Shown: positions 3,120 through 62,451 of the stretch, in pieces
How positions within the stretch are numbered: the stretch's first letter is position 1
Layout: every line of letters starts with the position of its first letter
DNA from: a virus
Reading direction: 5' to 3' (one strand)
IMG/VR virus record: IMGVR_UViG_3300037473_000391
Length of the DNA stretch: 64,000 nucleotides
The notes under the pieces: model-generated
What the model saw: only the letters and a program-made list of their open reading frames with translations
What the model was told of the DNA's origin: nothing
Database searches by the model: none
Position numbers and translations under genes: made by a program

Positions 3120-4180
3120 CGCGACTCGCCTGCGCCAACGCGCACCACCACGTTGGTCACTACCTCATGGGGATCGGCATCTTGTCGGTGTTATCCCGCA
3201 GCCACCCAACCATGCTGGCACATTGGGAGCGTGAGGAGCTTTGCGTCAATCTCGACAGGGGCATACTGATCGATCTACTGCTCAACATTGCCAGAGCCGG
3301 CGCTTGGCGCGCTCCAACAGCCCGCCAATATCACCCGCTCTTCGCGCAGTGGGGGCGACGTGAGCCGCACACATGGCAGCCATTCGCTCGGGAACTGCTG
3401 CGCGATGACCAGCGCCGAACCGAACTCGAAGCTCTGATCGATGGCGAAAGCTTCATCATTCGCAGGCCGCCGACAACTTGGAACGGAAAAGTCATTGGCG
3501 AAGCCACGTTTCGCGCCTACGGCATGGGCACGATCTATCCCAACACGGTGCCCGATCGCGCAGGAAGCGGCATCGGCGCCGCGCTCTCCCCATGGCAGGC
3601 AGTGTTAGCCTGGGAGGCGCTGTGCTGGATTGGCGTGTCTACCGTCTCGATGCAGGACTACGCCTGGTCCAATCCGAGCGACGTTGCGCCATACAAGGCG
3701 TGGCACGCGGTTACCTGGGATACGCCGGTAGAACTGCGTCGAGCACAGCTACTGTGGCGCCCCAGAGGACGCTTCGCTGGAGAGCTTTGGAGCGATTGGC
3801 TGAAGGGGCAAGGCGCGCCGCTGCTTCGCCCATTTGGGCGACTGAGTCTACATCGCCATCAGTTTCGCCAGACCGACGGCAGCAAATGCGCCGAGGCGTT
3901 TGGGTCAATAGACCACAATGCGACGCGCGCACTGAACGCTGCTACCAATAGGATAACGGTTGGTTCTCCACGAATGGCGCTTTCTCTGCCGCGTCGTATG
4001 GAATGGTTTCGAGAGCTTCGATCTACTCCCGTGAGTGAGTTTGATGCGTGGACGGAAGTTCCTGAGTCGGTTCGGCGCTGGTACGCGCAGCAGGCCAATT
4101 CGCGTCGCGCTGATTCCGAGCGAATGCCGAAGCGGGTGCAACGGTTTCTCGAGCGGCGCGGGGTTCAGATCTGCGGCTGA
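3116..4180 (+). CDS. hypothetical protein (354 aa), last gene of the plus-strand operon
   Basis: ATGA overlap with the upstream gene. W/R-rich protein with no recognisable motif. Confidence 0.6.
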   Translation: MTRLACANAHHHVGHYLMGIGILSVLSRSHPTMLAHWEREELCVNLDRGILIDLLLNIARAGAWRAPTARQYHPLFAQWGRREPHTWQPFARELLRDDQRRTELEALIDGESFIIRRPPTTWNGKVIGEATFRAYGMGTIYPNTVPDRAGSGIGAALSPWQAVLAWEALCWIGVSTVSMQDYAWSNPSDVAPYKAWHAVTWDTPVELRRAQLLWRPRGRFAGELWSDWLKGQGAPLLRPFGRLSLHRHQFRQTDGSKCAEAFGSIDHNATRALNAATNRITVGSPRMALSLPRRMEWFRELRSTPVSEFDAWTEVPESVRRWYAQQANSRRADSERMPKRVQRFLERRGVQICG

Positions 4181-4187
4181 AATAGCG

Positions 4188-4215
4188 AAAACCCCGCCAG
4201 CCGAAGCCAGCGGGG
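4188..4215 (-). terminator. putative intrinsic terminator for leftward transcription
   Basis: The minus strand reads CCCCGC-N12-GCGGGG followed by TTTT. It sits between tRNA-Pro and the convergent plus-strand operon. The stem is only 6 bp. Confidence 0.35.
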
Positions 4216-4224
4216 TCAACCGAG

Positions 4225-4296
4225 TTGGGGTGGAGGGACTCGAACCCCCGGCATCCTGCTCCCAAAGCAGGCCGTCTACCACTGACTTACACCCCA
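4225..4296 (-). tRNA. tRNA-Pro (anticodon TGG)
   Basis: Hand-folded cloverleaf. Acceptor TGGGGTG/CACCCCA; anticodon arm CCTGC-TTTGGGA-GCAGG; T arm GGGGG-TTCGAGT-CCCTC. No encoded CCA. Confidence 0.8.
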
Positions 4297-4326
4297 GAAA
4301 GGTGAACAGCCAGCGTCACGGGTTTG

Positions 4327-4398
4327 GGTGACGGGCGCGATTCGAACGCGCGATGACTGGGGCCACATCCCAGCGCCTTACCACTTGGCTACCGCCAC
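4327..4398 (-). tRNA. tRNA-His (anticodon GTG)
   Basis: Acceptor GTGGCGG/CCGTCAC (one G-U pair); anticodon arm CTGGG-ATGTGGC-CCCAG; T arm GCGCG-TTCGAAT-CGCGC. The base at -1 is T, so no G-1 is encoded. Confidence 0.8.
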
Positions 4399-4450
4399 AG
4401 AAGAACTGCGAGCAAGTCATTGGCGATGGCGATGGGTGAGCATGTGAACT

Positions 4451-4523
4451 TGGTGGAGCCGTAGGGAGTTGAACCCTAGCAGGGTACGCGTGCAAAGCGG
4501 TCTGGCAGCCCGTGCGCGGCCCC
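4451..4523 (-). tRNA. tRNA-Ala(TGC)-like, atypical (possible pseudo-tRNA)
   Basis: Good acceptor GGGGCCG/CGGCTCC with G3:U70, a T arm TAGGG-TTCAACT-CCCTA and an encoded CCA. The loop TTTGCAC is identical to the tRNA-Ala(UGC) loop. However, the anticodon stem has only 3 bp and the D arm is degenerate. Confidence 0.45.
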
Positions 4524-4527
4524 GGAG

Positions 4528-4604
4528 TGGTTGCGCCTGCTGGATTTGAACCAGCGGCCTTCAGGTTATGAGCCTGACGAGGTACCGGACTCCTCTAAAG
4601 CGCA
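4528..4604 (-). tRNA. tRNA-Met (anticodon CAT; elongator type or tRNA-Ile2)
   Basis: Acceptor TGCGCTT/AGGCGCA; D arm GAGG-AGTCCGGTA-CCTC; anticodon arm TCAGG-CTCATAA-CCTGA; T arm GCTGG-TTCAAAT-CCAGC. CCA is encoded. Confidence 0.85.
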
Positions 4605-13181: not shown

Positions 13182-16100
13182 GGCGCGCCGCCCGTAACGC
13201 GAGCTTCGATCCAGCTCTCCCACGTGTTCGATCCGGCGCCGCCCGGGGCAATCGCCCATGCGACGTTGACGGTGTCACCCGTCTTCGATGCGTCGAGTGT
13301 CGCTTGCGTCGTTTGACCGCTGCCACTCAGCGTGCTCGACGGCGTCCAATACGCTCGCGTCGTCGAGCCCTGCTGCTTCATGTACGTCACGCCCATGCCC
13401 TTGCCCGGATAGAAGAACCAGGCCTCGGCAGCGATGTAGGGGTATGACGTCGAATCAGTCACGCAGCGAGACGTGATGATCACCTTGATGAGGAACGCGC
13501 CGTTGCTCAGGTCACGGCCCATCATGTTCGAGAAGTCGAGCGCGAGCGTACCGCTTCGCGACGTGCCCGTCCCCGAGTCCTCGACGTAGCCGACGCACTG
13601 GTCGATGAGCATGCGGCCGTCAGCGGGCCGCGCGTTGAGATACCCTGGTGACTTTCCGCCGCTGCCCGCGAATGCGTGCGCGCGCGATTGGCCGGCGCCG
13701 GCTGCTCCGGGAATCGCGCTGTTGAATTCAACGGTGCGCGTGTTGAGCAGGGCGTTGTCGCCCATCGACTGGTTGCCCTTGAACGTGTGCTTTCCGTTCG
13801 CGGTTATTACGTGGCGATCGAGGACGCGCCACCCCAGGGCAACGAAGTCGTACTCGATCCACATCTCCTCATTGAGGTACCCAAGTACGAAGTTCGTCGA
13901 CCCAGGGCAGATGATGAGGTTGTTGGCTGCCGACGATCCACCGCTGGCGGTGTAGTGCTTGATGGTGACGTAGTTGGATGACGACCGATTGCGAATTCGC
14001 TTGATCGACTCCTTGGTCGAAGTTGGCGCTTCGAAACCCCAGATGTTTACGTCAGCGCTAGGGTTCAACTCGACGTTGTTGGCGTCTTGCCAGCTTGCGC
14101 TGTTTCCGCCGTTGAAGTCGTTCTGATCGGTGGAGATTGCGATCGGACCAAAAGGCGACCGCCGGCGCTTGAGCGTTAGGGTGGTACCCGAGAGCGTTCC
14201 GTCAGTGCCGTCGTCGAAGTTTACGGTCGTTAGCCCACCAGCTCCAGGGGCACCGTCGTTCCCATCCGTCCCCTTGTCGCCCGTGCGCGAGAACGCGATC
14301 TGAATGTCACCCGCAGTCGTCGGCAGAGGCCCGTTCGAGGCGACGTGTGAGAGCGTGATGTTGCTGTAGCCAGTTGGCTGCGAAAGAGCCGTGACGCTGA
14401 ACACGACGAGCTTGCTGGGGTCGCTGTTGGACCGCAGCGTTAGGTAACCCTTGTGGGATGACGTCGAATCGTCCCATTGGGCAAACCACGCGCGCAGGTT
14501 CGCGCCGCCGACCTCGAGATCGTCGATGTAGATAGCGGTTACGCTGCTGTACGAGCTGCCGCTAACCGCTGCATTGAAGCGGAAGTTGCCGTCGCCCGGA
14601 TCCGCCGCCGCGGCAACGGTCGTCGAGAACGTATACCTGGGACCAACAACGTCAACGAGGTTTCCGTCTGCGCCCTTGTCACCCGTGCGCGAGAACTGCA
14701 GGAAGATGTCGGCCGCTGTCGTGACGAACGAGCCGCCGCTGTTGACGTGAACGACCGTGAAGTCACGATAGCCGGCCGGCGACGAAGCGGCCGTCAGCTG
14801 GAACAGCGCGAACGCCGTTGGGTCCGTGCGGCGCCGAAGCGTGATGTAGCCCTTGACCGTCGAGGTCGAGTCATCGAGCGAGTCGAGGTACGCCGTTACA
14901 TCGCGCCCGTTGGCGTCCTGCAGGTCGACGTAGAGATGCGTGATGCTCGAAACCGTCGCGCTGGAGAAACGGATCTTTCCGTTACCCGGATCCGTCGCAC
15001 TCGTGCCCGAGTTGTCGTAGGTGTAGGGAACACCAGAAGAACCGGGATCGCCGGAGCGCGTGAACGAAACGATTGTGTCGTTGGCGGTCGTCTGCAGGGC
15101 GTTGCCCGCGTTGACGAATACGACGGTCAGCTGCTGCCAACCGCCAGAACCCGCGACCTGGTTCGTGACCGTTACGACGTCGAACTCGGCCCAACGCGTG
15201 CTGTCGCTCGCACTCGCGAGGCGTAGTCGACCCTTGACCGCGCCCTGCGATGCACCTAGCGCATCTTCCCAGCTTTCGACGTTGATAGTGTTGCCGTCGA
15301 GATGATCGAGCGCGATGGCGGTGACGCTTCCGATCGTTGCGTTGTTGAGGCGGAGCTTCCCCGAAGTCGGGTCCGCCATCACCGTCGAGGAGGTGTCTAG
15401 GGTGAACGGGATGCCGTTGCTTGCGCCGCCCCCGCCACCCGAGAACGTTGAACCGACGAGCTGCCCGTTGACCGCGCGCACGAACTGGCCGTCGGTGATG
15501 CTTCCGAGCGGCATTCGCACGCCGCCCATGTGGACGGCAATGACTGCGGGGTCGGGGTAGTTTCCTTCGAGGTCTCCGCCCGCGACGCCGAAGATCGAGA
15601 CCTCATGCCAGACCGTACCGCCTGCGTTGATCCATGCGCGCCCGTCGGTCGAGAGCGCGAACTCGCCGCCCGCGCCATTCTCGACGCCATTGGGGTCGCC
15701 AACGATGCGGCGAATCCAATCGATCGTCGTGAGCCCAGTGCCTGCGCGCGCGACGATTTGGCCGTCGACCATCGCGTCGATGGTGAGACGTTCACCCGAC
15801 GCTCCCCCAGAATGCACGGCGATGACGCGCAGGTCCTCTAGCGGATCGCCACCGTCGACGGCATCACCACCAACCGGCGGGATCGTGATCGAGCCCGTGT
15901 TGATGAGATCGAGAAGGGCGTCGCGGTTGATGCTGACGACGATGTTGGTGCCGACGAGCTGGACGAGGATGAGGTCGCCCTGTGCGATGTTGCGGAACTC
16001 GAGATCGGTTCCGCTTTTCGTCTCAAAGACGCCGACGCCATCGGTCCCGACGTTCGACGCCGTGTTGGCCTCGCCGCCGGCTGATACGGAGAGCGCGGCA

Positions 16101-49600: not shown

Positions 49601-50445
49601 GGTGCCCCCTGAAAGCGCCGCGCGCGGTCAGGGTGATCGAACGGCTTCGTGAAGTCTTCGACGTTGACGCTTGGGTCGTCGGGCTGGCGCTGGGGAGGCT
49701 TGCGGTTTCCGGCACGCGATGGGTTGGCGCGGTCGTCCTGCGCATCCTTCACGGCCCACTTGCGGTACGCCTGCCGCCACTGGGTTGGCGTTCGCTTTGA
49801 GCCATCGCCAGCGTAGTGGGCAACGAATCGCGCCAGGTAGCGCTCGTGGTTCCCTGCCGCGGGGGTCATATCCAGAACGGCAGCCCCGGGGTCCCAGCCT
49901 TCGACCAGCTCCGTCGGCTCATCAGGGTCGAGAGAACGAAGCTGGGTCCCCCCTGGACCCCCTCCCTGAACAACAACACTACCAACCGTACCGTGCCGTA
50001 CCTTATGGGCCGCGGAATCCGCGCGCTGTCCACCTGTGTTTCCGCGCGGAATATCCTCCGGAGACCCTGAGGAATCCGGCCCGGAATCCTTCTTGCCTCG
50101 CTTGCGATCGCGGTCGCGCTTCCGTTTGGCCTCCACGTCCGCCTTCGACTCGTTCCAATCGAGGAAGTCATGAACCATGTATCCGCCGTCAGCTCGAATG
50201 AAGAGACCGGGGCCATTGGGTCGCAGGCGAGCCTCGCAGAGCTTCTCGGCGAGCTTCTTGGCTTTCGCCATAGGGATGGGCTCAGGTAGGCAGTCCGTGG
50301 CTAGCGCCGCCAGAGGAACGAAGCCGTCTGTCAGGTACTTGTTGCAGTAGACGACGGAGGCCACCCAAAGAGCCCAAGCTTCGTTGCCGGCCACTCGAGC
50401 CTTGGGGTGCGACGCCGAAGCGTCATCGAAGCGCGCCCAGGTCAC
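49597..50445 (-). CDS. hypothetical replication-region protein
   Basis: GTG at 50445 in a GTGA overlap. It has a basic KRKRDRDRKRGKK linker. The function is inferred from position only. Confidence 0.45.
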   Translation of the reverse strand: MTWARFDDASASHPKARVAGNEAWALWVASVVYCNKYLTDGFVPLAALATDCLPEPIPMAKAKKLAEKLCEARLRPNGPGLFIRADGGYMVHDFLDWNESKADVEAKRKRDRDRKRGKKDSGPDSSGSPEDIPRGNTGGQRADSAAHKVRHGTVGSVVVQGGGPGGTQLRSLDPDEPTELVEGWDPGAAVLDMTPAAGNHERYLARFVAHYAGDGSKRTPTQWRQAYRKWAVKDAQDDRANPSRAGNRKPPQRQPDDPSVNVEDFTKPFDHPDRARRFQGAP

Positions 50446-51095
50446 AGGCCTTCCTTTCGCATCAACTCCAACAGCTCGATGATCTCTGCAACGCACCCAT
50501 TCGCGTCCTTCCAGATCTCACTGCCCGTGAATCTCACTACAACGTGACCCTGAGCAACTATCTGGCGATCGCGCTTTCTATCACGCGACACTTGCTGCTT
50601 GGTTGCGGCGTGAAATTCATGCCCGTCGCATTCGACATAGAGAACCTTGGATGAGTTTTCTGGAAGCCAGAAAGCGAAGTCTGGCTTCAGTGGACCACTG
50701 TCAGTGTGAACTCTTGGTTGGGTTTTTACGACGAATCGCCAAGTCTCTTCTTTTGGCGTGTACTCCACCAAAGTGGTTTCATCTTCGGCATCTGAAAACT
50801 CCATTGATGGGGAGAAGTTAAGCAAACAGAGCGCGAGTGCGCGCTCTATAGGAGAACGGGTTCCAGTCAGAAGCGTCTGGCCGCGATAGACGAAGTCCGG
50901 AATCTCCGTGCCATTGATCATCAAAACGGCCAGGACAACTCGAAGCGGAGCGTTAGCCATTCGCTCGACGAATAACTCCGGAACCGGAACGTCATCTAGC
51001 TGAAGATTGCCGATTACCAGTTTGGCGCGGTCTTGTAGCGATAGCCTGAAAGTGTGTTGTCCGCGTTCCAGTTTCGGTTTCTCGTTGCTTCCCAT
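50442..51095 (-). CDS. DUF559 / Vsr-like PD-(D/E)XK endonuclease domain protein
   Basis: C-terminal YVECDGHEFHAATKQQVSRDRKRDRQIVAQGHVVVRFTGSEI. The gene is lower in GC. Confidence 0.65.
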   Translation of the reverse strand: MGSNEKPKLERGQHTFRLSLQDRAKLVIGNLQLDDVPVPELFVERMANAPLRVVLAVLMINGTEIPDFVYRGQTLLTGTRSPIERALALCLLNFSPSMEFSDAEDETTLVEYTPKEETWRFVVKTQPRVHTDSGPLKPDFAFWLPENSSKVLYVECDGHEFHAATKQQVSRDRKRDRQIVAQGHVVVRFTGSEIWKDANGCVAEIIELLELMRKEGL

Positions 51096-52669: not shown

Positions 52670-53109
52670 TCGGTAGCCTCCAGCACCGAGACCGGCAGCA
52701 TTGTCTCGATCTGTCCGACCGAGAACTCTCGGCTACCAACCTCGCGGCACGCCCAGGGTTGAGCCTTCGCGCCCATCTCGCGCAGTAACACCTCTAGTTT
52801 TGCCGTGTATTCGGACACGACCTCGCGCGCGAACATGTCGTGGTTGCCGTCAGGGTCGCACAGCTCCTCGTTGTCCTCGTCGATCCGCCGCAGACACTCG
52901 CCCATTACGAACTTGGCTAGTCGCGCGTAGTCCGTATCCAACTTCTCGCGCACATATGCCTTGACGGTCACGGGACAACGACTGCGCCAGTCGTCGGTGG
53001 ATTCAACGAAGTCCTGAAGAGCTCCATCAACGTCCTCATGTTGGAGCGTCTCCGCGTTATCGCGCGCGTCGTAGTAGAGCGCGGTGTCGAACGGGTCGAT
53101 GGTGTTCAC
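52666..53109 (-). CDS. hypothetical acidic protein
   Basis: GTG at 53109 in a GTGA overlap. D/E-rich. Confidence 0.45.
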   Translation of the reverse strand: MNTIDPFDTALYYDARDNAETLQHEDVDGALQDFVESTDDWRSRCPVTVKAYVREKLDTDYARLAKFVMGECLRRIDEDNEELCDPDGNHDMFAREVVSEYTAKLEVLLREMGAKAQPWACREVGSREFSVGQIETMLPVSVLEATE

Positions 53110-53771
53110 TCGGCAGCCTCCGCGACACGCGCTTTCGATCCGCGCACCTTCTTCGGAGCCCAGTCCCAGTGCGTGATAAGCCCTGGGTGTTCCGGTAGGT
53201 TGTAGCTGTAGATGCACAGTGCCAGATCCTTTGGGAACGGATCCGTCGACCCCACGAATGTAATGCGCCCAATGCTGTAGACCGTTGCGAACGGTGTGAC
53301 GTACGTGCGCCACCACTTCGTCCCAACGGCGAGTGGGCACAGCAATGCGATCTCGAGGTCGATCGACTTGTGAACCGTCGACTCAGCGCACTTGCGAACC
53401 CAGGGCAAGATAGGGTCAAACGGAGGATTGAGCCAACACAGCTGTTTCAGCTGCGTCCAATCCTGTTTGAGCGAGTCACGCTCTGGACCCCAGCTCAAGT
53501 CGTTGGCTTCATCGCCGACAACAACCGAGCTACCAGGGCTAGCTGCGAGATCGAAGAAGATCACCCCGAAACGACTCTCGACAGCATCAAGGAACGCGCG
53601 TGGTGTTCGCACGTCCTGCGCACTCTTGCCGCGCTTCATGGCGGCCCCACGCACACGCCGGAACTCCACGATCTCGGAGTCCGCCATCATGGGCGGATCG
53701 AAGTCGTCAGCGACGATGCACAGGGGCTTGCCTGACACCACCAACACGCGCACCGCATTCGCTTCAGTCAT
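53106..53771 (-). CDS. dam: phage-type DNA N6-adenine methyltransferase (Dam family)
   Basis: RTPRAFLDAVESRFGVIFFDLAAS and WLNPPF. Confidence 0.75.
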   Translation of the reverse strand: MTEANAVRVLVVSGKPLCIVADDFDPPMMADSEIVEFRRVRGAAMKRGKSAQDVRTPRAFLDAVESRFGVIFFDLAASPGSSVVVGDEANDLSWGPERDSLKQDWTQLKQLCWLNPPFDPILPWVRKCAESTVHKSIDLEIALLCPLAVGTKWWRTYVTPFATVYSIGRITFVGSTDPFPKDLALCIYSYNLPEHPGLITHWDWAPKKVRGSKARVAEAAE

Positions 53772-53967: not shown

Positions 53968-54233
53968 GGTGATACCTTCTCGCTTGCCCGCGCGTGCGGC
54001 CCGCAGTAGTCCCTGTTGACGCCTTGGCTCACAGCGCACAAGGAACACAGGCAGCGGTCACAGGTCTCTGTTTTGCCGTTGCGGGTTACTGGATAGTCGC
54101 ACCGCTTGGAAGCGGAGCGCCCACAGTGGGGAGTCTGACAGCGTTTCTGCTTCGAGCCCCTCGTGCAAACGAAGCCTGTGACACCGTTGCCGAGATTGAA
54201 AGGTTTGCAGGTCACGCGGCCTCCGGAATCCAA
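53964..54233 (-). CDS. Cys-rich hypothetical protein
   Basis: 12 Cys residues in 89 aa. Confidence 0.45.
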   Translation of the reverse strand: MDSGGRVTCKPFNLGNGVTGFVCTRGSKQKRCQTPHCGRSASKRCDYPVTRNGKTETCDRCLCSLCAVSQGVNRDYCGPHARASEKVSP

Positions 54234-54595
54234 GGCGTTAGCTTGGGAGCGACATCGACGGCTGGCGGCTCATCACCCAGCGCCGTCAAGTCGTAGACGG
54301 GAATGCCGCAGGAGACCGCGTGCGTGGCCTCGATGCGCATACCCGGAGAAACACGGCCCCCGACGAGCACGAGGTAATCGCATCGCTCAACATGCGCGAG
54401 GTCACACGCGATTCCGAGCTCGCGGTTCTCCGGCGACTCGTCCCACACACCCGAGAGCACGATCCAGTCCGCGGATGGGGCACAGTTGAGCGCCTTGGCG
54501 AGCCAGCCGCACCAACGCATTGCGCGCATGCGATTCGCGTCTCGGTCGGCGCCAGCTCCTAGCGGGTGGGCGACGTAAACGATAGGGCGCTTCAT
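54212..54595 (-). CDS. DUF4406 / nucleoside 2-deoxyribosyltransferase-like protein
   Basis: ATG at 54595 (ATGA overlap). VYVAHPLG...CDYLVLVGGRVSPGMRIEATHA pattern. Confidence 0.5.
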   Translation of the reverse strand: MKRPIVYVAHPLGAGADRDANRMRAMRWCGWLAKALNCAPSADWIVLSGVWDESPENRELGIACDLAHVERCDYLVLVGGRVSPGMRIEATHAVSCGIPVYDLTALGDEPPAVDVAPKLTPWIPEAA

Positions 54596-54957
54596 GACCA
54601 CCCCTGCAACGCTTCGCGCAGTTCAGCGACGTCCTGTCGCAGGTCATCAGCTCGTCCCAGTGTCTCGTAAGAGTTTCCACAGAAGTAAGCGGCACCAGCG
54701 CCAATGTATGTCACGACAAGCGACATCAGCGCTACGGCAGGCCAGCTGTCTGGTGCAGCATGTAACTCACGCAGCCCAAACAGGATGTTAACTAGTGCCA
54801 GGATCGCGAACACAACAGACGACGCTCGCTCAGCAATCGCGAGATGCACCCAACCTCTGGCGCTCTCTGTGCGCCACTCGATTCCATCACGCGCGATCTG
54901 GCGCATCGCCGGCGAGCGGACGCCTTCTGTCCACCATTTTCTCACCACGACAACCAC
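54592..54957 (-). CDS. membrane protein
   Basis: GTG start with two hydrophobic segments. Confidence 0.45.
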   Translation of the reverse strand: MVVVVRKWWTEGVRSPAMRQIARDGIEWRTESARGWVHLAIAERASSVVFAILALVNILFGLRELHAAPDSWPAVALMSLVVTYIGAGAAYFCGNSYETLGRADDLRQDVAELREALQGWS

Positions 54958-55696: not shown

Positions 55697-56218
55697 TCAG
55701 CTACCCCGCAGCACTGGCACATGGCGAATAGGTCGACGGTGCTCGATGTCGCTCCAAAGAATCCGAAGCTCCCGATGCGTCTCCGCGCGAAGCTTCGCCC
55801 AGTCAGGGATAACATCCCGCGCGCAACCGCGACCATCCTGCGCGGCGTACATGATCTCTAGTCCGTAGCGCGCGCACATGCCGAGCCGCTTGTCTGCAAG
55901 CGTCGCCGAGATGCGCAGGTTCTCAGGTTCGAGACCGAAGATCGCCTCCCATAATCCTGAATGGGGGTCATCGTGGAGCTGCCACCAACCCCGCGCTTTG
56001 CCGCCATCGCACCAGTAACCTTCGACACACCCGAGCTGGAACTCGGGATTCAGGCCGGTTTCGTGTCGCCCTTGGTTGAGCAGCCGCATGGCGCGCTCGG
56101 GGTTTCCGTGAGCGACATCGGCGATAGCGATCGAAGCGTCGGACGCGACTTGCTCTTGCCCTGGGATCTGTGGCCAAAGCGCCACGAACACGGCGAATAC
56201 GATTTGAGTGAAAGTCAA
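55697..56218 (-). CDS. hypothetical protein, weakly lytic-transglycosylase-like
   Basis: An N-terminal hydrophobic segment, then HETGLNPEF...GWWQLH. This is a weak call. Confidence 0.35.
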   Translation of the reverse strand: MTFTQIVFAVFVALWPQIPGQEQVASDASIAIADVAHGNPERAMRLLNQGRHETGLNPEFQLGCVEGYWCDGGKARGWWQLHDDPHSGLWEAIFGLEPENLRISATLADKRLGMCARYGLEIMYAAQDGRGCARDVIPDWAKLRAETHRELRILWSDIEHRRPIRHVPVLRGS

Positions 56219-56511
56219 AGTTGGTTCCTCTGGGTAAGAATTGCGCTGGACGCGGGGATAAGTGGCGGTACGCGTCGGCGTCTTGGGTTAACTCTATGGG
56301 CAAAGAGAGGGGCGTTGTCCGCTTCCGCGAGCGCCATCCGCGCAGCACTCACGGCGCGCCAGGACTCCTGCAGGTTGCGACGAGTGATCGCGAGAATGTT
56401 GGCCGCGTCCGCTGTGAGCACGGAGTTGGCCGGGAAAGGTGCACGCAAGGCATCAGGCGGGAGGTGGGGAGGGAGACCCGGGCCCCGCGTGCGTAAGTGG
56501 TGGAGGGTCAT
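56215..56511 (-). CDS. hypothetical protein
   Basis: Internal ATG at 56511 overlaps the upstream stop by 1 nt. Confidence 0.4.
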   Translation of the reverse strand: MTLHHLRTRGPGLPPHLPPDALRAPFPANSVLTADAANILAITRRNLQESWRAVSAARMALAEADNAPLFAHRVNPRRRRVPPLIPASSAILTQRNQL

Positions 56512-57419
56512 TACGCGGCCTCCCGAACTGCAGTGATGAGATCGCGCGCCACCGGAGGACACACGGCGTTTCCGAGCCCGCGAATGACGTTCGCTCGGGA
56601 TAGCTCAGTGGGCCAGGTGTACGACTCCGGAAAACCCATGCCGCGTGCGAGCTCGCGAGTTGTGAGAGGGCGATAGCCGCGCTTGCGGTCAGCGAGGATC
56701 CACTGGTCCTTGGTCGTGATTGTTCGAATGGGTTCGTTGATGGGCACGCCGCGATGCCCGGTCGTGTGCTGCACGAGCGCGACGGGGTAGCGCGACAGCG
56801 CTGCTTCGATTCGCCCACGGCCACCAGGTGCCGCTTTGGCGACGGGACGCCAGCCTGTCGCGTCGGCATCGAGGCACGGGGCAAACGCTGGCTCAGTCGT
56901 CAGCGAAAGAGGCAGCTGAAGTGAGCGCCCGTTGCGAAGTCCAACGATGAACAGGCGCTCTCGGCGCTGCGGCACACCATGCGCGCTCGCCGTCAGGACG
57001 TGAGTCGAGAGCGTGTAACCGATGCGCTCCAAGGCCTCGCGCCAGGTCCCGTAGAGACGCCACTGCTGAAAGCTCGTGACGTTCTCGATGATGATCCCGC
57101 TGGGTTCACACGTGTCCGCGCAGTCGACGATCGCCCACGCGGTTGCGCGCATGGCGTCGTGGTAGGCGCGCCGCTTGGGCTGCGAAGCGGTGCTGTGACC
57201 CTGACACGATGGGCTGCCCAAAAGTAGATCGAAGCGCGGGAGCGCGGTCCAGTCGGCTTGTCGGAGATCTTGGCACGCGTGCTCGGTCTCTGGATGGTTG
57301 GCGGTGTGGACCTGGACAGCGAGGGGCGAATGGTTTGCGGCCCAGGCGACATGGACGCCGGCTTGGCGCGCCGCCTCGGTGAAGCCGCCGAAGCCCGCGA
57401 AGAGATCGACGGCGATCAC
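56511..57419 (-). CDS. dcm: DNA cytosine-5 methyltransferase
   Basis: Motif I DLFAGFGG, motif IV GSPSCQGHS, motif VI IIIENV, motif VIII QRRERLFIVG and motif X GNAVCPPV. Confidence 0.85.
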   Translation of the reverse strand: MIAVDLFAGFGGFTEAARQAGVHVAWAANHSPLAVQVHTANHPETEHACQDLRQADWTALPRFDLLLGSPSCQGHSTASQPKRRAYHDAMRATAWAIVDCADTCEPSGIIIENVTSFQQWRLYGTWREALERIGYTLSTHVLTASAHGVPQRRERLFIVGLRNGRSLQLPLSLTTEPAFAPCLDADATGWRPVAKAAPGGRGRIEAALSRYPVALVQHTTGHRGVPINEPIRTITTKDQWILADRKRGYRPLTTRELARGMGFPESYTWPTELSRANVIRGLGNAVCPPVARDLITAVREAA

Positions 57420-57982
57420 GCGGCCCTCGATCGGTTGACGGCAACTGCGCGTGCGATTGAAACCAGAAACTCAGCGAACGCCGGCGGCGTCCTTCTGCGA
57501 CCCGCGGCGGACAACTCAAGCAGATGCGTGTTGCGGTTGCGCGAATTCACGCAGTGAGTTGGAGTTCCGCCTCGCAACAACGTGACCGAGCTCGGTCGAA
57601 CACCAACGACGTAGAGCCAAGTGGTCTTGCGGGCGCGATGCCCCCAGCTGACCTGGTCGACTTCAACCGCCCATCCGCCGAACTCGTCGGGTAAACCGCC
57701 GGGTAACGGCAGGTTGCAGCGATCCCAAAGCTTAGACGCTTGCGGGTGCTCCAGTACGCCGCCCCAGCGACGCACTTGCTCGACGGCGAGCGGCGCTAAA
57801 TCCTTGGGCTGATGACGGCAGAAGAATCGCAGTCGCGACCATGGCCCACACGGCGGATGCGCGACGATTGGGTGTGGGCCTGCGTAACCACGCGCGTCAC
57901 GCTGCTCATCCCAGCAGTCGACACCAGGGAGCTTTGGGTATGGCCCCAGCGCGTCCACGTAGAGGGCCGCGACGGTGATCAT
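57416..57982 (-). CDS. mini C5-methyltransferase-like protein lacking an FxGxG motif and a target-recognition domain
   Basis: ATG at 57982 (ATGA overlap). Motifs AHPPCGPWS (IV-like), GGVLEHP (VI-like), WGHRARKTTWLYVVG (VIII-like) and RRTPPAFAEFL (X-like). Confidence 0.5.
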   Translation of the reverse strand: MITVAALYVDALGPYPKLPGVDCWDEQRDARGYAGPHPIVAHPPCGPWSRLRFFCRHQPKDLAPLAVEQVRRWGGVLEHPQASKLWDRCNLPLPGGLPDEFGGWAVEVDQVSWGHRARKTTWLYVVGVRPSSVTLLRGGTPTHCVNSRNRNTHLLELSAAGRRRTPPAFAEFLVSIARAVAVNRSRAA

Positions 57983-58512
57983 GTTACGTGCCCCCAAGTT
58001 TTTCCGCGCACGATGTCGTGAACGCTTGATGCGTTCAGGTCGACTTGGGCACCGATCTTGGCAAGGCTCAGCCCGTCAGCGCGCAGTCTGCGAATCAGCT
58101 TCACCTTCTCGGGATCAATCTTCGCGTTTGGGTGTTCAGAGCCTGTTTTGAACCGGTTGAAGTGCGCGCGACCGCGCATGCGCATGTCCGAGAGGTTGTC
58201 GGCTTGCGTTCCGAGCTCCAGATGATCAGGGCGGACACACGCGACGTTGTCGCAGCGATGGCGAATCACTTGACCGGGTGGGATATCGCCGCGCGCGAGC
58301 AGCCAACTCATTCGATGAGCAAGGAAACTGCGCTTCTTGATCGCGAACAGACCGTAGCTGAGCGCGCCGCCTCGACGCTTCGTGCGGTACCCCTGCCACT
58401 CCCAACATGCGTCACCCTCAGCCCACTTCACTAGGCTGGCGAAACGCTGAGCGGAAGCCGCTTCGATCCCGCGCGAAGCCCCCCCGCCGGCGAACAAATC
58501 GACGACGATCAC
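57979..58512 (-). CDS. HNH endonuclease whose first ~20 codons look like C5-methyltransferase motif I
   Basis: GTG at 58512 (GTGA overlap). Starts VIVVDLFAGGGASRGIEAA. HNH_3-like CWEWQGYR...HRMSW...HRCDNVACVRPDHLELGTQADN. C-terminal HTH-like segment. Confidence 0.7.
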   Translation of the reverse strand: MIVVDLFAGGGASRGIEAASAQRFASLVKWAEGDACWEWQGYRTKRRGGALSYGLFAIKKRSFLAHRMSWLLARGDIPPGQVIRHRCDNVACVRPDHLELGTQADNLSDMRMRGRAHFNRFKTGSEHPNAKIDPEKVKLIRRLRADGLSLAKIGAQVDLNASSVHDIVRGKTWGHVT

Positions 58513-59153
58513 GCGGCCACCTCCGAGCTGCCCTGAGCGACGCACGGGATCGCTGCGCGAACCTCAGCACAGTCCTGGAACCATTCACCCTGAACACGCC
58601 ACTCAGCGAGGCGCTTGTGCAGGGCCAGCTCGTCACGCTTGGTACCTGGCATCGTGCGCAGAACCTCGACCGAACCGAAGCGCTTCTCGAGATCGCGCAC
58701 CCGTTGCTTCAGGTTCGACGTGAACCCGATCTTGATGCACCATGTGCTCTCGGCACGGATGAAGTACACGACCGATTCGCGTGCGACGCAGACCTTAGGG
58801 CCAAGTCCGTTCCGATTCAGATGCGCGCGCAGCCAAGCGTCAGCATGCGGCGTGTAGATCGTGACCGCGCCTCCCGGAGCACGCTCACAGGGCATCGGAT
58901 TATTCGCTTGCGTGAGCCAGCGCTTGACCGTGCCGAGCGAGAGTTTTCGCAGCTCAGCGTATCGGCGCGGAGTGACTCGCGCGGGCACAAGGCGAGACAG
59001 GGTGACGCGAGCGCGGTCCGCCAGCTGCGTCGTCTTCGTTCCGTCCTCAAGGACAACGTTGCGCCCGAAGTAGCCGCCCTTGGGCATCCACTTGCCAGCG
59101 CTGACTATGCGGCGCCCGTCCCGCATGACCATCTGCGCGGTGGGCTCGGTCAC
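58509..59153 (-). CDS. T5orf172 (GIY-YIG-like) domain protein with an N-terminal HTH
   Basis: VYFIRAESTWCIKIGFTSNLKQRVRDL...HKRLAEWRVQGEWF. Confidence 0.65.
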   Translation of the reverse strand: MTEPTAQMVMRDGRRIVSAGKWMPKGGYFGRNVVLEDGTKTTQLADRARVTLSRLVPARVTPRRYAELRKLSLGTVKRWLTQANNPMPCERAPGGAVTIYTPHADAWLRAHLNRNGLGPKVCVARESVVYFIRAESTWCIKIGFTSNLKQRVRDLEKRFGSVEVLRTMPGTKRDELALHKRLAEWRVQGEWFQDCAEVRAAIPCVAQGSSEVAA

Positions 59154-60529
59154 GACGCCACCACCTTCCGGGCGCGCGTCAAATCCCAGGGGCCAAAGAT
59201 CTCACTACCCTGCTCCGCTGTCCGGATCGCCTTACGGAGCCAGGCGCGATCGTCACTGTTCCGATTTTGGAGCGATTTATCCGCTAAGCCTGCGTTGTCA
59301 CTCTGCTTAGCTCCGGTTTCGTAAACCGTAGGTCTCCAGTTCGATTCTGGAAGTTGGCTCTCTTGTTTTTCCCTGAATTTGACGATAACTCGCTCCGAGT
59401 CACTGGAACGGCTCTGGAACGTTTTCTCCGCCGCCTTGAACGCCTTGTCGTCGAGCAGTTGGGCGTAGATCTCGGTCGTCGTCACAGACGCGTGCCCGAG
59501 TAGCGCGCGCACTTCCTCGAGTGACCACGTGTGATCCGTCTCTGACCACCAGCCTGCGAGCAGCGCGGTGGCCGTCGTGTGGCGAAGCCAGTGCCAGTTG
59601 CGGTACGGGATCTTGCACGCGCGGAACAACTCGACCCAGCCCTTCGGGTGCTTGTTCCAGCGGCGTTGCTCCCCGCGCCAACCCGGGAACAGCCACTCCG
59701 ATTTCGCGAGAGCCGGGAACGCAGAGCGCAGTTCGCCTAGGAGCCGCAGCGCTTCATCTGTTGGCGGGAGACGCGGGACTTCGCGCCAGTCTCCGGACTT
59801 CGGCGATGCGTTCGCTTCACTGCGGCGAATCAGGATCCCTGACTCCGACACGTCCTCGCGCTTGACACCCCACTGCTCCGAAAGGCGGCATCCCGTGCCC
59901 AGGGCGAACAACACCGACGCAAGCAGGAGCTTGCGCTTCGCTTCATCCTGCTTTGCGTGTTCGCTCAGCTTCAGTCGCTTGGGCTCACGTAACTCACGGA
60001 GCAGCGCGTTCTGGTGCTCAGGGCGCAGCAACTTGGAGAGCAGCTCCGTCTTTGGAGTCTTCCCTGCCTTGCCTCGGATCTGGATGCCATCACACGGGTT
60101 GGCCGCCACAAGTTCACGCTCGACCGCGTAGGCAAATGCGTATCGCATCGAGTTTAGGCGATTGCGCTTCGTGCTCGGCGACACTGCGCGATCGATCCAA
60201 TTCTTGATGTGGACGCGCGCCAGGTCGACGGCTCGGGTTGCGCCGAACTCTGCGATGATTGCGGTCCATATGCCGCGCTCACCACGGAGTGTCGATGGCT
60301 TCAGATCGCTGCGACGCAAACGCTCAGCTCTCACGAGCTCGACGAGGTGCCTTACAGTGAACTCGTCAGCCTTGACCTGCAGGGCAACGAGCGCGTCGGC
60401 GTACTCGCGCGCCCTCGCCTCGGTGAGGCCGCTCGCAACGGTCTGGAGTTTGCCCTCGATGCGAGTTCGCACGCGCCACTTGCCCGGCGCGTACTCCTCA
60501 ATGTTACCACTTCCGTACTCGCGACTCAT
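59150..60529 (-). CDS. int: tyrosine integrase with a ~105-aa extension after the catalytic Tyr
   Basis: The ATG at 60529 is preceded by GGAGGA and overlaps the upstream stop. Motifs GCRLSE, HWLRHT and LLGHASVTTTEIY. Confidence 0.9.
   Translation of the reverse strand: MSREYGSGNIEEYAPGKWRVRTRIEGKLQTVASGLTEARAREYADALVALQVKADEFTVRHLVELVRAERLRRSDLKPSTLRGERGIWTAIIAEFGATRAVDLARVHIKNWIDRAVSPSTKRNRLNSMRYAFAYAVERELVAANPCDGIQIRGKAGKTPKTELLSKLLRPEHQNALLRELREPKRLKLSEHAKQDEAKRKLLLASVLFALGTGCRLSEQWGVKREDVSESGILIRRSEANASPKSGDWREVPRLPPTDEALRLLGELRSAFPALAKSEWLFPGWRGEQRRWNKHPKGWVELFRACKIPYRNWHWLRHTTATALLAGWWSETDHTWSLEEVRALLGHASVTTTEIYAQLLDDKAFKAAEKTFQSRSSDSERVIVKFREKQESQLPESNWRPTVYETGAKQSDNAGLADKSLQNRNSDDRAWLRKAIRTAEQGSEIFGPWDLTRARKVVAS
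59312..59359 (+). mobile_element. putative attP core: 3' half of a tRNA-Thr(CGT) inside int
   Basis: CCGGT-TTCGTAA-ACCGT AGGTC TCCAG-TTCGATT-CTGGA AGTTGGC T. There is no D arm or 5' acceptor strand. Confidence 0.6.
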
Positions 60530-60723
60530 CGGATCCTCCGCAGGCCCGCGCTCACGGCGCGCAGCGCTTCTTCGCTGGGGGGTTGCGCCGGCGGGGTCAA
60601 CTTGCGGCGCTTGCGCGGTTTCTGATGCCCTCGAACTCGAGCGAGTTCTTCGGCGCACGCCGAGATGGCAGCAGCGTGGCGAGCAATCTCGCTCGTAATC
60701 TCCTGTTCGCTTCGCTCACTCAT
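60526..60723 (-). CDS. small basic protein upstream of int (excisionase/directionality-factor candidate)
   Basis: Translationally coupled to int. The function is inferred from position only. Confidence 0.4.
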   Translation of the reverse strand: MSERSEQEITSEIARHAAAISACAEELARVRGHQKPRKRRKLTPPAQPPSEEALRAVSAGLRRIR

Positions 60724-61065: not shown

Positions 61066-62451
61066 TCACGCTTCCTGCTGGAACGCCAGCTTTGGGTTTT
61101 GGTTGCACCATTGAGGTGTCGGCCACGAAATGGTCTCGGGCGGCGCGTAGGTCAGCACAACGTCGCCGTGCCGAATCTGCTTGGCGTCAGCGACCGAGCT
61201 GACGGGGATCTGCCAACGTCGTGCCGCTTGGGCGGTTTTCAATTCAGGGTGAACGGGCTCCACGAAGTGTGGTTGCGAGCCGTCATGCAGCGCGGGCGAA
61301 CGCATGCGCAGGAACCGCGGCTGCTCGTCCCCGAGCCGCGTTGCCGTGTCCAGCAACTGATAGTCGAGTCCCGTCTTCGGATCCTGCCACTCGTCGATCG
61401 TCACGAGGTCGCGCAGCGCGAGATACTTTTCCCAACCGAGCTTCTCGGCAAGGCATCGGTGTATCTCCGAGTTGCGCTCTGCATTCAGCTCCTCGCGGGT
61501 GAACGACTCCGGCTCCGTGATGACGCGCTTGTCGACGCGCACACCGTGCCAGACATAGATCTCGTAGCCATCACGGCAGCGCAGCGCCGGGCCATCGGAG
61601 CTGTGCAGGCGACCACGTTCGTCCATCGAGAAGCTCTCGTGCCGCTCGGAGCAGATAACGAATTCACCAAAGACGAAGAAGTGTGTGGGACCGCTGATCA
61701 GCTTGAGCCAGCGCTCTAGCTGTGCGTTCTGATCTGCAGTGAACTCCACACCGCAGACGTCGCGCACGGACGCGCAGTGCATCCACCAGCTGAACCAATG
61801 CGTTGACCAGCGGTTACCCCAGGCACGCCAGTGCAGATCGGCGAGTTGCCCTCGGAGTTGCCCTCGGAGTTGCCCGTCGAGTTGCCCTCGGAGTTGCCCG
61901 TCGAGTTGCCCTCGGAGTTGCCCGTCGAGTTGCCCTCGGAGTTGCCCGTCGAGTTGCCCGTAGAGTTGCCCGGCGAGTTGCCCTCGGAGTTGCCCGTCGA
62001 GTTGCCCGTAGAGTTGCCCGTCGAGTTGCCCGTAGAGTTGCCCGTCGAGTTGCCCTCGGAGTTGCCCGTCGAGTTGCCCGTCGAGTTGCCCGTAGAGTTG
62101 CCCGTAGAGTTGCCCGTAGAGTTGCCCGTCGAGTTGCCCTCGGAGTTGCCCGTCGAGTTGCCCGTCGAGTTGCCCGGCGACGTCAGCGAGCTTCCCGCTC
62201 TTTGCCAAGATCAGCGCATAGGCGATGAGGGGCGCCGCAAGCACGCAGCTCAGCGGGCCGTCGAACCAGAAGATTTTAGGCGCTGGCTTGCCAAGGGCGG
62301 CGTACATCTCGGTCAGAACAGCGGCGGTGGTCTCGCGGTCTGCCGGTTCCGTGCTCTTACCCTTGGCAAGCCAGCGCTCGCGCTCGGAATCGATCCGATT
62401 CCACTGCTCTGGTGTCAAACTTGTGATCTTGGCGTTTCCCATCGCGTTCAC
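61066..62451 (-). CDS. hypothetical protein with 28 tandem GQLx tetrapeptides
   Basis: 461 aa. The repeat block is flanked by W-rich non-repetitive domains. Confidence 0.65.
   Translation of the reverse strand: MNAMGNAKITSLTPEQWNRIDSERERWLAKGKSTEPADRETTAAVLTEMYAALGKPAPKIFWFDGPLSCVLAAPLIAYALILAKSGKLADVAGQLDGQLDGQLRGQLDGQLYGQLYGQLYGQLDGQLDGQLRGQLDGQLYGQLDGQLYGQLDGQLRGQLAGQLYGQLDGQLRGQLDGQLRGQLDGQLRGQLDGQLRGQLRGQLADLHWRAWGNRWSTHWFSWWMHCASVRDVCGVEFTADQNAQLERWLKLISGPTHFFVFGEFVICSERHESFSMDERGRLHSSDGPALRCRDGYEIYVWHGVRVDKRVITEPESFTREELNAERNSEIHRCLAEKLGWEKYLALRDLVTIDEWQDPKTGLDYQLLDTATRLGDEQPRFLRMRSPALHDGSQPHFVEPVHPELKTAQAARRWQIPVSSVADAKQIRHGDVVLTYAPPETISWPTPQWCNQNPKLAFQQEA
61841..62176. repeat. 12-bp in-frame tandem repeat, 28 copies
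   Basis: Plus-strand units are GAGTTGCCC followed by TCG, GTC or GTA. These encode GQL(R/D/Y) on the minus strand. Confidence 0.9.

Follow-up and report, generated by a model that had tools for sequence, protein, structure and literature searches.

Three consecutive genes of a viral sequence begin in nearly the same way, and the question raised by this locus is whether they are the pieces of one interrupted cytosine methylase or came together from separate sources. The sequence is IMG/VR record IMGVR_UViG_3300037473_000391, and the window refers here to the whole 64,000-nucleotide (nt) stretch that was analyzed. Four minus-strand genes follow an integrase gene (Table 1): a T5orf172/MUG113-domain gene, an HNH endonuclease open reading frame (ORF), a gene for a 188-amino-acid (aa) protein that we call mini, and the cytosine-C5 methylase gene Dcm. 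Every junction in this series is a 4-nt stop/start overlap (GTGA or ATGA). The look-alike starts of the last three genes were first noticed in a sequence-only reading, and their coordinates, sequences, and N termini were confirmed: HNH begins VIVVDLFAGGGAS, mini begins MITVAALYVDALGPY, and Dcm begins V/MIAVDLFAGFGGF. An identical mini protein is found on four metagenome contigs, where public gene calls have the same order, lengths, and starts. The interpretation offered by that reading is partly supported. We conclude that these are probably three independent accessory genes stacked in one translationally coupled slot within the early operon of a temperate phage. Comparison with related loci establishes the cassette structure, the insertion junctions, and the methylase fossil in the HNH gene; for mini we favor, on the strength of its modeled fold, a role as a minimal, low-specificity DNA cytosine-C5 modifying enzyme.

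Judged by its sequence, the window Dcm is an intact orphan C5 cytosine DNA methylase with its own motif I. It matches PF00145 (E = 7.4e-45; 154 bits) and TIGR00675 (E = 8.9e-40; 137 bits), and motifs I, IV, VI, VIII, and X are present, with F7-G9-G11-G12, P70-C72-Q73, E112-N113-V114, Q151-R153-R155, and G283-N284-A285-V286 invariant in 34 homologues. Relatives with 68 to 76% identity (loci L097, L099, and L100) lie in similar integrase-proximal operons and have neither HNH nor mini. A nucleotide search of the locus against deposited phages returned only a weak match to Dcm.

The closest relative of the HNH ORF is in locus L012, where the HNH stop overlaps the start of an intact Dcm (63% identical to the window Dcm) with no mini gene between. 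By blastn, HNH is 81.5% and Dcm 69% identical between the window and L012, and the mini gene is the only insertion. HNH homology runs from 58447 to 57972 and Dcm homology from 57418 to 56498; the inner ends of both converge on the same 10 nt of L012 (4346 to 4355), which marks the mini gene, at the nucleotide level, as a clean insertion of ~555 nt that separates the HNH stop from the Dcm start and is flanked by TGATCACCGTCG and TGATCGCCGTCG. In the window lineage, mini recombined exactly into this position via the 12-nt TGATC(A/G)CCGTCG. The window protein starts MI-TVAAL where the family consensus, as read from the printed alignment rows, is mostly MR-TVAAL, a difference that we attribute to use of the start-codon microhomology in the insertion. 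HNH is sporadic: in the window and L012 it stands behind different upstream genes with the same ~30-nt left junction, GCAGCTCGGAGGTGGCCGC (encoding SSEVAA and a stop codon), preceding its start in both. The L012 upstream gene has no T5orf172 or other Pfam domain, and its last 30 residues differ save for the shared SSEVAA end. HNH and an intact Dcm of a different subtype move together as a ~1.5-kb cassette, seen without mini in L012. The idea that the 188-aa gene is the remainder of an invaded methylase does not survive these comparisons, since HNH sits directly on an intact Dcm in L012 and 77 of 80 viral mini loci lack such an HNH within 4 kb. A split, reconstitutable gene of the intron or intein type fares no better: Dcm has its own motif I, of another subtype, mini is independent, and no intron RNA family of Rfam matches within positions 56000 to 59600.

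From the alignment of its homologues, the HNH N terminus is a genuine C5-methylase motif I, a fossil of the large DLFAGGGGASxGIE subtype that was inherited with the HNH clade. The ORF identifies itself as a free-standing I-HmuI-like homing-endonuclease gene by its domain and fold matches: PF13392 (HNH_3) scores 44.7 bits against a cut-off of 24.8, the best PHROG match is endonuclease/HNH endonuclease (E = 1.5e-26), the PADLOC HEase model is matched, and I-HmuI (1u3e) is the top PDB fold match (probability, 0.97). Across 40 homologues, 40 to 82% identical to the window protein, H85, C87, D88, C92, H97, and N106 are invariant and N89 is at least 90% conserved (H-x-C-D-N...H...N). About half of these homologues start xxVDLFAGGGGASxGIExA, and the others have partial deletions or lack the fragment; some extend it into LGRxPDIAVNHDAA before the conserved core from (R)F(W/A)S. 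The 52-aa N-terminal piece of one homologue, P0139, is 72 to 90% identical (E = 1e-10 to 4e-12) to the N termini of annotated phage C5-methylases, which are 565 to 713 aa long and bear DSFAGGGGAS and SPDCKHFS motifs. The window Dcm is of another subtype (DLFAGFGGF, SPSCQGHS). The similarity reported by the sequence-only reading is therefore retained among homologues, where it is stronger; its picture of a homing gene that invaded a dcm paralogue and displaced the 5' exon stands as regards a real methylase 5' end, but this piece goes back to the ancestor of the HNH clade and does not derive from a second dcm at this locus.

The fossil in the window appears to be decaying. Its region retains a weak match to a methylase family (phrog_5999; E = 0.005), and in the AlphaFold model residues 1 to 5 and 8 to 10 have a predicted local distance difference test score (pLDDT) below 50 (mean of 46 for residues 1 to 10), the remainder being confident (mean, 88.9). 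Relative to L012 (78% identity for the HNH), the fragment shows two indels and ~63% identity by hand count, and the HNH core aligns ungapped with 82% protein identity, which is consistent with relaxed constraint on the fragment as far as sequence divergence can tell. In the history that these comparisons show, the HNH lineage entered a large DLFAGGGGAS-type phage C5-methylase gene, in frame and immediately behind motif I, and kept the ribosome-binding site, start codon, and first codons of the invaded gene as its translation start, with a remnant, predicted to be unstructured, left to decay.

Related loci retain more of such events. In L010 (4001 to 5186) and L102 (506 to 1254), HNH carries a fused methylase 5' fragment of 45 to 50 aa, and a 39-aa ORF behind it preserves a methylase 3' end (GNSVSPYNAAALISANL and NAALVAANL; in fuller form, ...QVRFCGNSVSPYNAAALISANL and MNAALVAANLG...); the HNH gene therefore lies within the ruins of a methylase gene. 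In L010, a 146-aa gene with a weak, sub-threshold Pfam match to the Mom family (E = 8e-4) stands between HNH and the 3' remnant. In L019, a related HNH (3543 to 4004; E = 8e-27 to the clade hidden Markov model [HMM]) starts VTVAALYVERGG, a copy of the first 12 codons of the mini family, and an intact mini gene (4001 to 4558; start, MISVAALYVERGGPY) lies directly 3' of it; this is the sole case among ~160 mini loci of an HNH that starts with a mini-family N terminus, and it repeats the borrowed-start layout of the window with mini as the target. Together with the methylase fossils, L019 indicates that HNH genes of this kind have repeatedly come to lie at the 5' ends of DNA modification-type genes and taken over their translation starts. 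The HNH part of the locus is ordinary, if neat, homing-endonuclease debris.

The likeness of the three gene starts is in part junction microhomology combined with translational-coupling signals (a Shine-Dalgarno [SD] sequence plus GTGA) and not common descent. A 33-nt direct repeat, the longest of the region, spans both methylase-type starts with 29 of 33 positions identical between copies, and its degenerate pattern occurs at these two sites only in the 64 kb (0 expected from 100 shuffles). We read this repeat, on sequence grounds, as common methylase ancestry plus a 3-codon deletion plus coupling signals, because L012 has the same upstream sequence with a longer, more divergent motif I fragment. 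A recent local duplication or gene conversion was rejected as its source on the same comparison, conversion being less favored rather than fully dismissed. One point tells against our reading: 13 nt, GGCCGCGTGATCG, are common to the upstream sides of both starts and could indicate local duplication. However, the HNH-upstream sequence is also present in L012, and mini genes often end in (E)AA before the stop. The last codons (SSEVAA) and stop of the T5orf172/MUG113 gene overlap the HNH start, and we also considered this SSEVAA as the fossil of a mini-gene 3' end, a candidate prompted by the mini protein of P0007, which ends SGEVAA; that gene is followed by a DUF7768 gene and no methylase, and the candidate was discarded. 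The SSEVAA/SGEVAA likeness is best explained by coupling signals (a GGAGG SD sequence, GC-rich Ala codons, and the GTGA overlap).

Mini, in turn, is a member of a large family that can be followed far from this locus. It matches phrog_12600 (labeled "unknown function") over its full length (E = 4.8e-59; residues 8 to 192 on profile positions 3 to 201 of 203), and the family has at least 7,891 homologues among 90% clusters and at least 2,287 clusters at 50% identity, mostly 180 to 210 aa long and basic (median isoelectric point, 9.3). Contigs and prophages that carry it are assigned to Myxococcota, Proteobacteria, Planctomycetota, Actinomycetota, Chloroflexota, and others; deposited phages with the gene include Mu-like Pseudomonas phages, Caulobacter, Ralstonia, and Xanthomonas phages, and three Microviridae. 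In the Mu-like phages the gene probably adjoins the terminase gene, as assigned by gene size and position, and in the microviruses it is the only candidate DNA-modification gene. When all ORFs within 4 kb of mini were clustered for 80 viral loci, no real family recurred in more than 5 loci, the larger clusters being overlapping-frame artifacts; an HNH was found in 3 of the 80 and a window-type Dcm in none. The family is thus stand-alone and independent of both neighbors.

Longer members are fused to D12 Dam, ParB_N, HATPase_c_3, or DUF1643. The first three are partners typical of phage and restriction-modification (R-M) methylases. A search of the longer members with PHROGs and Pfam found just these four domains and a helix-turn-helix (HTH), and PADLOC gave no match for the mini gene, the T5orf172 gene, or the mini fusion proteins. 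In P0220, mini residues 1 to 128 (through motif VIII) are joined to a C-terminal DUF1643 (E = 3.7e-24) that replaces the motif X helix, and L108 (2812 to 4215) has the same layout by reading of its sequence; these proteins may be chimeric enzymes or truncations. A second subfamily (Pseudomonas phage Persinger, L156, L158, and L169, with several metagenome-assembled genomes) has a canonical PPCQ(R)W motif followed by a ~20-residue insertion (…GDDGGCFAAAL…), and its region from motif VIII to the C-terminal helix is longer and different. The RefSeq record of Persinger (L015; NC_054149.1) has no coding sequence annotated over its mini gene (~14543 to 15196), which lies between gp39 and gp40.

The mini protein conserves four motifs: HPPC (Cys45), LEHP (Glu78), GHxARKxTWLY (Lys119), and TPPxFA (Thr165). 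In an alignment of 80 diverse members, 37 to 57% identical to the window protein, Y15, H42, P43, C45, G75, E78, and K119 are invariant, and L7, R28, D29, A30, G35, W48, H79, P80, Q110, G114, H115, T121, T165, and P166 are at least 90% conserved, as is P44. The segments that the sequence-only reading assigned to motifs IV, VI, VIII, and X are present and conserved. Their spacing, which it had called typical of C5-methylases, agrees with Dcm from the Glu to motif VIII (41 residues in both) but is shorter from the Cys to the Glu (33 versus 40) and from motif VIII to motif X (46, K119 to T165, versus ~130). This last gap leaves mini without a target recognition domain (TRD) or motif IX as known from C5-methylases, or with a rudimentary TRD at most, as had been suggested. 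The FxGxG of the S-adenosylmethionine (SAM) loop in motif I is likewise missing; the position is not empty, however, since a conserved L-Y-V-D-x-x-G-P-Y is aligned there. In motif VI the Asn-Val of ENV is replaced by His-Pro.

Sequence-profile methods do not connect mini to the methylases at significant scores. We compared two family alignments, an enlarged alignment, and the PPCQ subfamily by hhalign with an alignment of Dcm and with a mixed alignment that took in four large phage methylases. The best path, from the PPCQ subfamily and nonsignificant, is colinear: it pairs the Cys of motif IV and the Glu of motif VI with the corresponding Cys and Glu of mini and lays the two motif VIII segments over each other. 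It sets G-H-x-A-R-K-x-T-W-L-Y against G-V-P-Q-R-R-E-R-L-F, so that the second Arg of QxRxR becomes Thr or Trp in mini, depending on a one-residue shift.

The predicted structure makes the connection. The AlphaFold model of mini is confident (pLDDT, 94.7; predicted template modeling score, 0.91), and all 50 listed Foldseek matches in PDB are C5 DNA methylases (best E = 5.9e-4; probability up to 1.0), among them DNMT3A/B/C, DNMT1, ZMET2, MET1, DIM2, M.HhaI, M.HaeIII, and 3g7u. The best of these are DNMT3B chains from DNMT3B-DNMT3L complexes. In the BFVD viral library, named matches are mostly cytosine methylases, and of the top 13 the 8 that have names are either methylases or phage proteins with several domains; the best matches are large multidomain phage proteins and short viral proteins of ~210 to 250 aa, of which one is named a putative cytosine methylase and another a SAM-dependent methyltransferase, and lower ones include a DNA polymerase and uncharacterized proteins. 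The model runs through strands at residues 4 to 7, 21 to 24, and 39 to 41, the HPPC loop, a helix at 62 to 73, and a strand at 75 to 80 ending in LEHP, followed by strands at 104 to 109 and 120 to 126 (the latter with GHxARKxTWLY), a 40-residue linker with the lowest pLDDT of the model (77 to 83), and a C-terminal helix from TPPxFA. Cys45 follows strand 39 to 41, as the PC loop follows β4, and Glu78 lies at the end of strand 75 to 80; between strands 4 to 7 and 21 to 24 there is no long helix (no helix A). The arrangement in M.HhaI is β4-PC-αD-β5-ENV-β6/7 (motif VIII)-motif X, and the modeled topology of mini matches it minus helices A to C, strand 3, motif IX, and the TRD. Mini is therefore a member of the C5-methylase fold family but not a Dcm: it has the fold, the Pro-Cys, and the Glu, and it lacks the profile match, motif I, and the TRD.

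A relative of mini has appeared in the literature once. Gp8 of the Rhodobacter microvirus Ebor was labeled a "putative DNA methylase" from an HHpred match (E = 2.3e-8), and its authors could not attribute the methylation that they observed to Gp8 (PMC11980548). Gp8 belongs to the mini family (tblastn E = 9e-18; 38% identity) and aligns at full length among the 80 members. The Ebor paper was the only publication found to mention a member, and the family has thus been noticed once as a putative methylase and never characterized. The sequence-only reading had held that profile searches placing the 188-aa protein apart from the C5-methylases would speak against its assignment; the Pfam, NCBIfam, PDB HMM, and hhalign searches are formally negative, and they are overridden by the C5-methylase-specific result of the fold search together with the published HHpred match of Gp8.

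The function that we favor for mini, from the model, is that of a complete, stand-alone phrog_12600 enzyme, a pared-down C5-methylase catalytic domain that would modify DNA cytosine at C5 with low specificity. Cys45 would add to C6 of a flipped-out cytosine, Glu78 would hold N3/N4, and C5 would thereby be activated. The aromatic and charged N-terminal segment LYVDxxGPY...WDxxRDARxY would replace the glycine loop as a cofactor pocket for group transfer to C5, and the near absence of a TRD would leave little sequence specificity. Protective modification of phage DNA against host restriction would be the most likely role. SAM-dependent methylation is the parsimonious chemistry, and given the modeled fold we put it at slightly less than an even chance. 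It is possible, though the balance is against it, that phrog_12600 represents a new minimal class of pyrimidine-C5 DNA-modifying enzymes of 160 to 200 aa without a SAM loop or TRD, either a sequence-independent methylase or an enzyme for another C5 group, serving as a stand-alone counter-defense gene of thousands of tailed phages, prophages, and 6-kb microviruses.

Several observations weigh against this reading of mini. The protein has no Pfam or NCBIfam match and does not reach the PF00145 or TIGR00675 thresholds; PF00145 was also absent from 42 members scanned with Pfam at E ≤ 10, PDB HMM searches with two family alignments were empty, and the hhalign comparisons gave probabilities below 1%. 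Foldseek TM-scores are moderate, with top PDB values of 0.45 to 0.48 (TMq range, 0.29 to 0.48) and up to 0.59 in BFVD. No canonical SAM loop, helix A, or motif II/III region can be recognized, which leaves SAM binding by mini putative, and Thr or Trp may stand in place of the Arg equivalent to M.HhaI R165. The window phage already has Dcm and Dam, and a further methylase is not obviously needed. Finally, nanopore data call only 1.58% of C as 5-methylcytosine (5mC) and 0.97% as 5-hydroxymethylcytosine in Ebor DNA (PMC11980548), which argues against massive nonspecific C methylation of virion DNA.

The low 5mC of Ebor (PMC11980548) also suits a rival view of the chemistry, close to the second option of the sequence-only reading (a Cys-nucleophile enzyme whose function is not ordinary methyl transfer), of which the fold and the invariant Cys and Glu are supported. 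In this view the Cys/Glu machinery serves something other than methyl transfer from SAM: transfer of another one-carbon or a larger group from a different cofactor, cofactor-less C5 exchange, deamination, aldehyde addition, or a covalent DNA-protein adduct. Such a shift is in keeping with the strictly conserved segment, rich in Arg, Asp, Tyr, and Trp, that stands in place of the FxGxG loop and helix A, with the nearly invariant H42, H79, and H115, which flank the catalytic motifs and have no counterpart in the canonical ones, and with the failure of every methylase profile to recognize the family; phages also offer a precedent in Cys-nucleophile thymidylate-synthase homologues that make 5-hydroxy-dCMP (PMC13326640). 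Yet no conserved adjoining gene is there to make or process a modification, the Dam and ParB_N fusion partners are those of ordinary phage methylases, and a remodeled SAM pocket is the simpler assumption, so that we consider non-methyl chemistry a serious but rather unlikely proposition. Mini could instead be a noncatalytic factor that binds DNA or protein, either a DNMT3L-like partner of a methylase (Dcm or a host enzyme) or an anti-defense decoy. Its missing SAM loop and TRD recall DNMT3L, its best PDB matches come from DNMT3B-DNMT3L complexes, and it lies directly upstream of Dcm in the window; this is nevertheless improbable, because a pseudo-enzyme would be expected to lose Cys45, Glu78, Lys119, His42, and Tyr15, which are invariant over the 80 members, because none of the 80 viral loci pairs mini with a window-type Dcm, and because microviruses have no other candidate modification gene.

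Two further alternatives concern how the genes of the slot relate to one another. An R-M-like pair, with the HNH nuclease restrained by Dcm methylation, would account for the co-inheritance of the two genes with shared boundaries behind different upstream genes in the window and L012. However, a homing enzyme is indicated by the HNH_3-plus-HTH architecture, by the fold match to I-HmuI, and by the PADLOC HEase model; among the HNH-homologue loci examined, a methylase adjoins HNH in the window and L012 only and not in L008, L010, L102, or L103, and relatives of Dcm without HNH exist, which makes such a pair very improbable. We find it scarcely credible that HNH split a local second dcm, leaving the motif I piece and mini as two parts of one methylase, possibly complementing in trans. 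The HNH does hold exactly the piece that mini lacks (the glycine loop together with strand 1), the genes adjoin each other with translational coupling, and a gene split by a homing endonuclease gene (HEG) is said to remain functional in the nrdA/mobE case of Aeromonas phage Aeh1. But mini possesses a conserved strand 1 of its own and is a complete domain in the model, nearly all mini loci do without the HNH, and L012 has the same HNH and fragment and no mini; the fragment, moreover, is predicted to be disordered and derives from ~565- to 713-aa methylases with an SPDCKHFS motif IV, unrelated in sequence to mini. We therefore retain three independent genes as the account of the locus and a reduced C5-modifying enzyme as the account of mini.

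The genes around the slot and the features discussed above are collected in Table 1. The gene upstream of HNH is a possible second selfish nuclease-type gene in the same slot, the T5orf172/MUG113 domain being GIY-YIG related; L012 has a T5orf172 gene at another position. The Dcm operon also contains a Vsr-like MTES_1575/DUF559 gene (~50442 to 51095, minus strand) and a Dam gene (PF05869; ~53106 to 53771, minus strand), with coordinates converted from the gene table of public contig L004. In a phage that produces 5-methylcytosine, a T:G mismatch endonuclease of the Vsr type would make sense. A DUF7768 gene lies at 54212 to 54601 (minus strand; E = 9e-14). Its L099 equivalent has weak matches to Nuc_deoxyrib_tr, DUF4406, and DUF1937, which suggests, by sequence similarity, that the product resembles a nucleoside 2-deoxyribosyltransferase. 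Members of this family turn up again in L097, L099, and L188, within a few genes of Dcm or mini genes, and may be part of a shared nucleotide or DNA-modification module. Elsewhere, a 12-nt tandem array of 28 copies (61842 to 62180; plus-strand consensus, CGAGTTGCCCGT) lies in ORF 61066 to 62451 (minus strand), where it encodes (G-Q-L-D/Y/R)n tetrapeptides that precede a DUF6745 domain; the end of contig L004 also falls within the ORF, at window ~61884, upstream of the array.

Table 1. Coordinates of the genes, codons, and repeats at the HNH-mini-Dcm locus (window positions)
Feature	Position	Strand	Remarks
Integrase gene	59150-60658		5' of the T5orf172/MUG113 gene; four minus-strand genes then follow
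T5orf172/MUG113-domain gene	58509-59153	-	PF13455, E 4.9e-9; PF10544, E 1.1e-7; follows integrase gene
33-nt direct repeat, copy 1	58486-58518	-	GGCCGCGTGATCGTCGTCGATTTGTTCGCCGGC; across HNH start
HNH ORF (HNH_3 + C-terminal HTH, 177 aa)	57979-58512	-	GTG start; PF13392
Fossil 5' end (motif I, VIVVDLFAGGGASRGIEAA) of DLFAGGGGAS-type C5-methylase gene	58456-58512	-	Now HNH ORF codons 1-19
Junction microhomology, 12 nt, left copy	57970-57981	-	TGATCACCGTCG; mini start
mini gene (188 aa)	57416-57982	-	ATG start; phrog_12600
Cys45 codon, HPPC motif	57848-57850	-	Putative nucleophile, cf. motif IV Pro-Cys; invariant in 80 members
Glu78 codon, LEHP motif	57749-57751	-	Cf. motif VI ENV glutamate; invariant in 80 members
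33-nt direct repeat, copy 2	57393-57425	-	GGCCGCGTGATCGCCGTCGATCTCTTCGCGGGC; across Dcm start
Junction microhomology, 12 nt, right copy	57407-57418	-	TGATCGCCGTCG; Dcm start
Dcm (302 aa)	56511-57419	-	GTG start; PF00145

The chemistry of mini carries most of the interest of this locus. The family occurs across many bacterial phyla and two viral realms; neither Pfam nor NCBIfam has a model for it, and annotation pipelines miss it. On a scaffold that is drastically reduced, its members retain the nucleophile and the general acid of a cytosine-5 methylase. Should mini prove active, it would define the minimal catalytic unit of the C5-methylase class and would provide either a compact nonspecific cytosine modifier, relevant to epigenetic tools and to phage escape from restriction, or a new DNA modification. 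The HNH lineage, for its part, has the 5' ends of DNA-modification genes as its targets and retains fossils of former hosts, and its borrowed starts explain look-alike gene starts that might otherwise be mistaken for gene duplication or programmed frameshifting.

Compared with known systems, mini is closest to the C5-methylases (PF00145; M.HhaI, M.HaeIII, DNMT3), with which it shares the overall fold, the Pro-Cys after strand 4, the Glu after strand 5, a motif VIII-like GHxARKxTWLY strand, and a motif X-like C-terminal TPPxFA helix; its Cys-Glu-motif VIII spacing is close to that of the neighboring Dcm, and one subfamily has the canonical PPCQ. It differs in the absence of any PF00145 or TIGR00675 match, whatever the threshold, and of FxGxG and helices A and B, in placing three strands and no long helix before the PC loop, in having EHP instead of ENV, and in not conserving the QxRxR arginines. 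Typical bacterial C5-methylases are ~300 to 400 aa long; mini has 188 aa against the 302 of the adjacent Dcm, with no real TRD or motif IX. Ebor Gp8 (PMC11980548) is of the same family and differs in its length (163 aa) and its setting, a 6.6-kb single-stranded DNA phage. The HNH ORF shares with I-HmuI-type homing endonucleases the HNH_3 core and C-terminal HTH, the fold, and a presence/absence polymorphism between related phages, but it is free-standing, not intron encoded, and its reading frame starts in the fossil of an invaded methylase. Among HEG insertions that split genes, mobE reportedly sits in nrdA of phage Aeh1, and L010 and L102 likewise have gene fragments on both sides of the HEG, whereas the window fragment is ~19 codons long, belongs to no functioning split gene, and is followed by a different, intact methylase. 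DNMT3L, finally, is a catalytically inactive C5-methylase-like regulator with a shortened fold that lacks a TRD and a functional SAM site and has lost its catalytic residues. Mini is likewise a shortened C5-methylase fold without a TRD, but unlike DNMT3L its family keeps the Cys, Glu, His, and Lys invariant.

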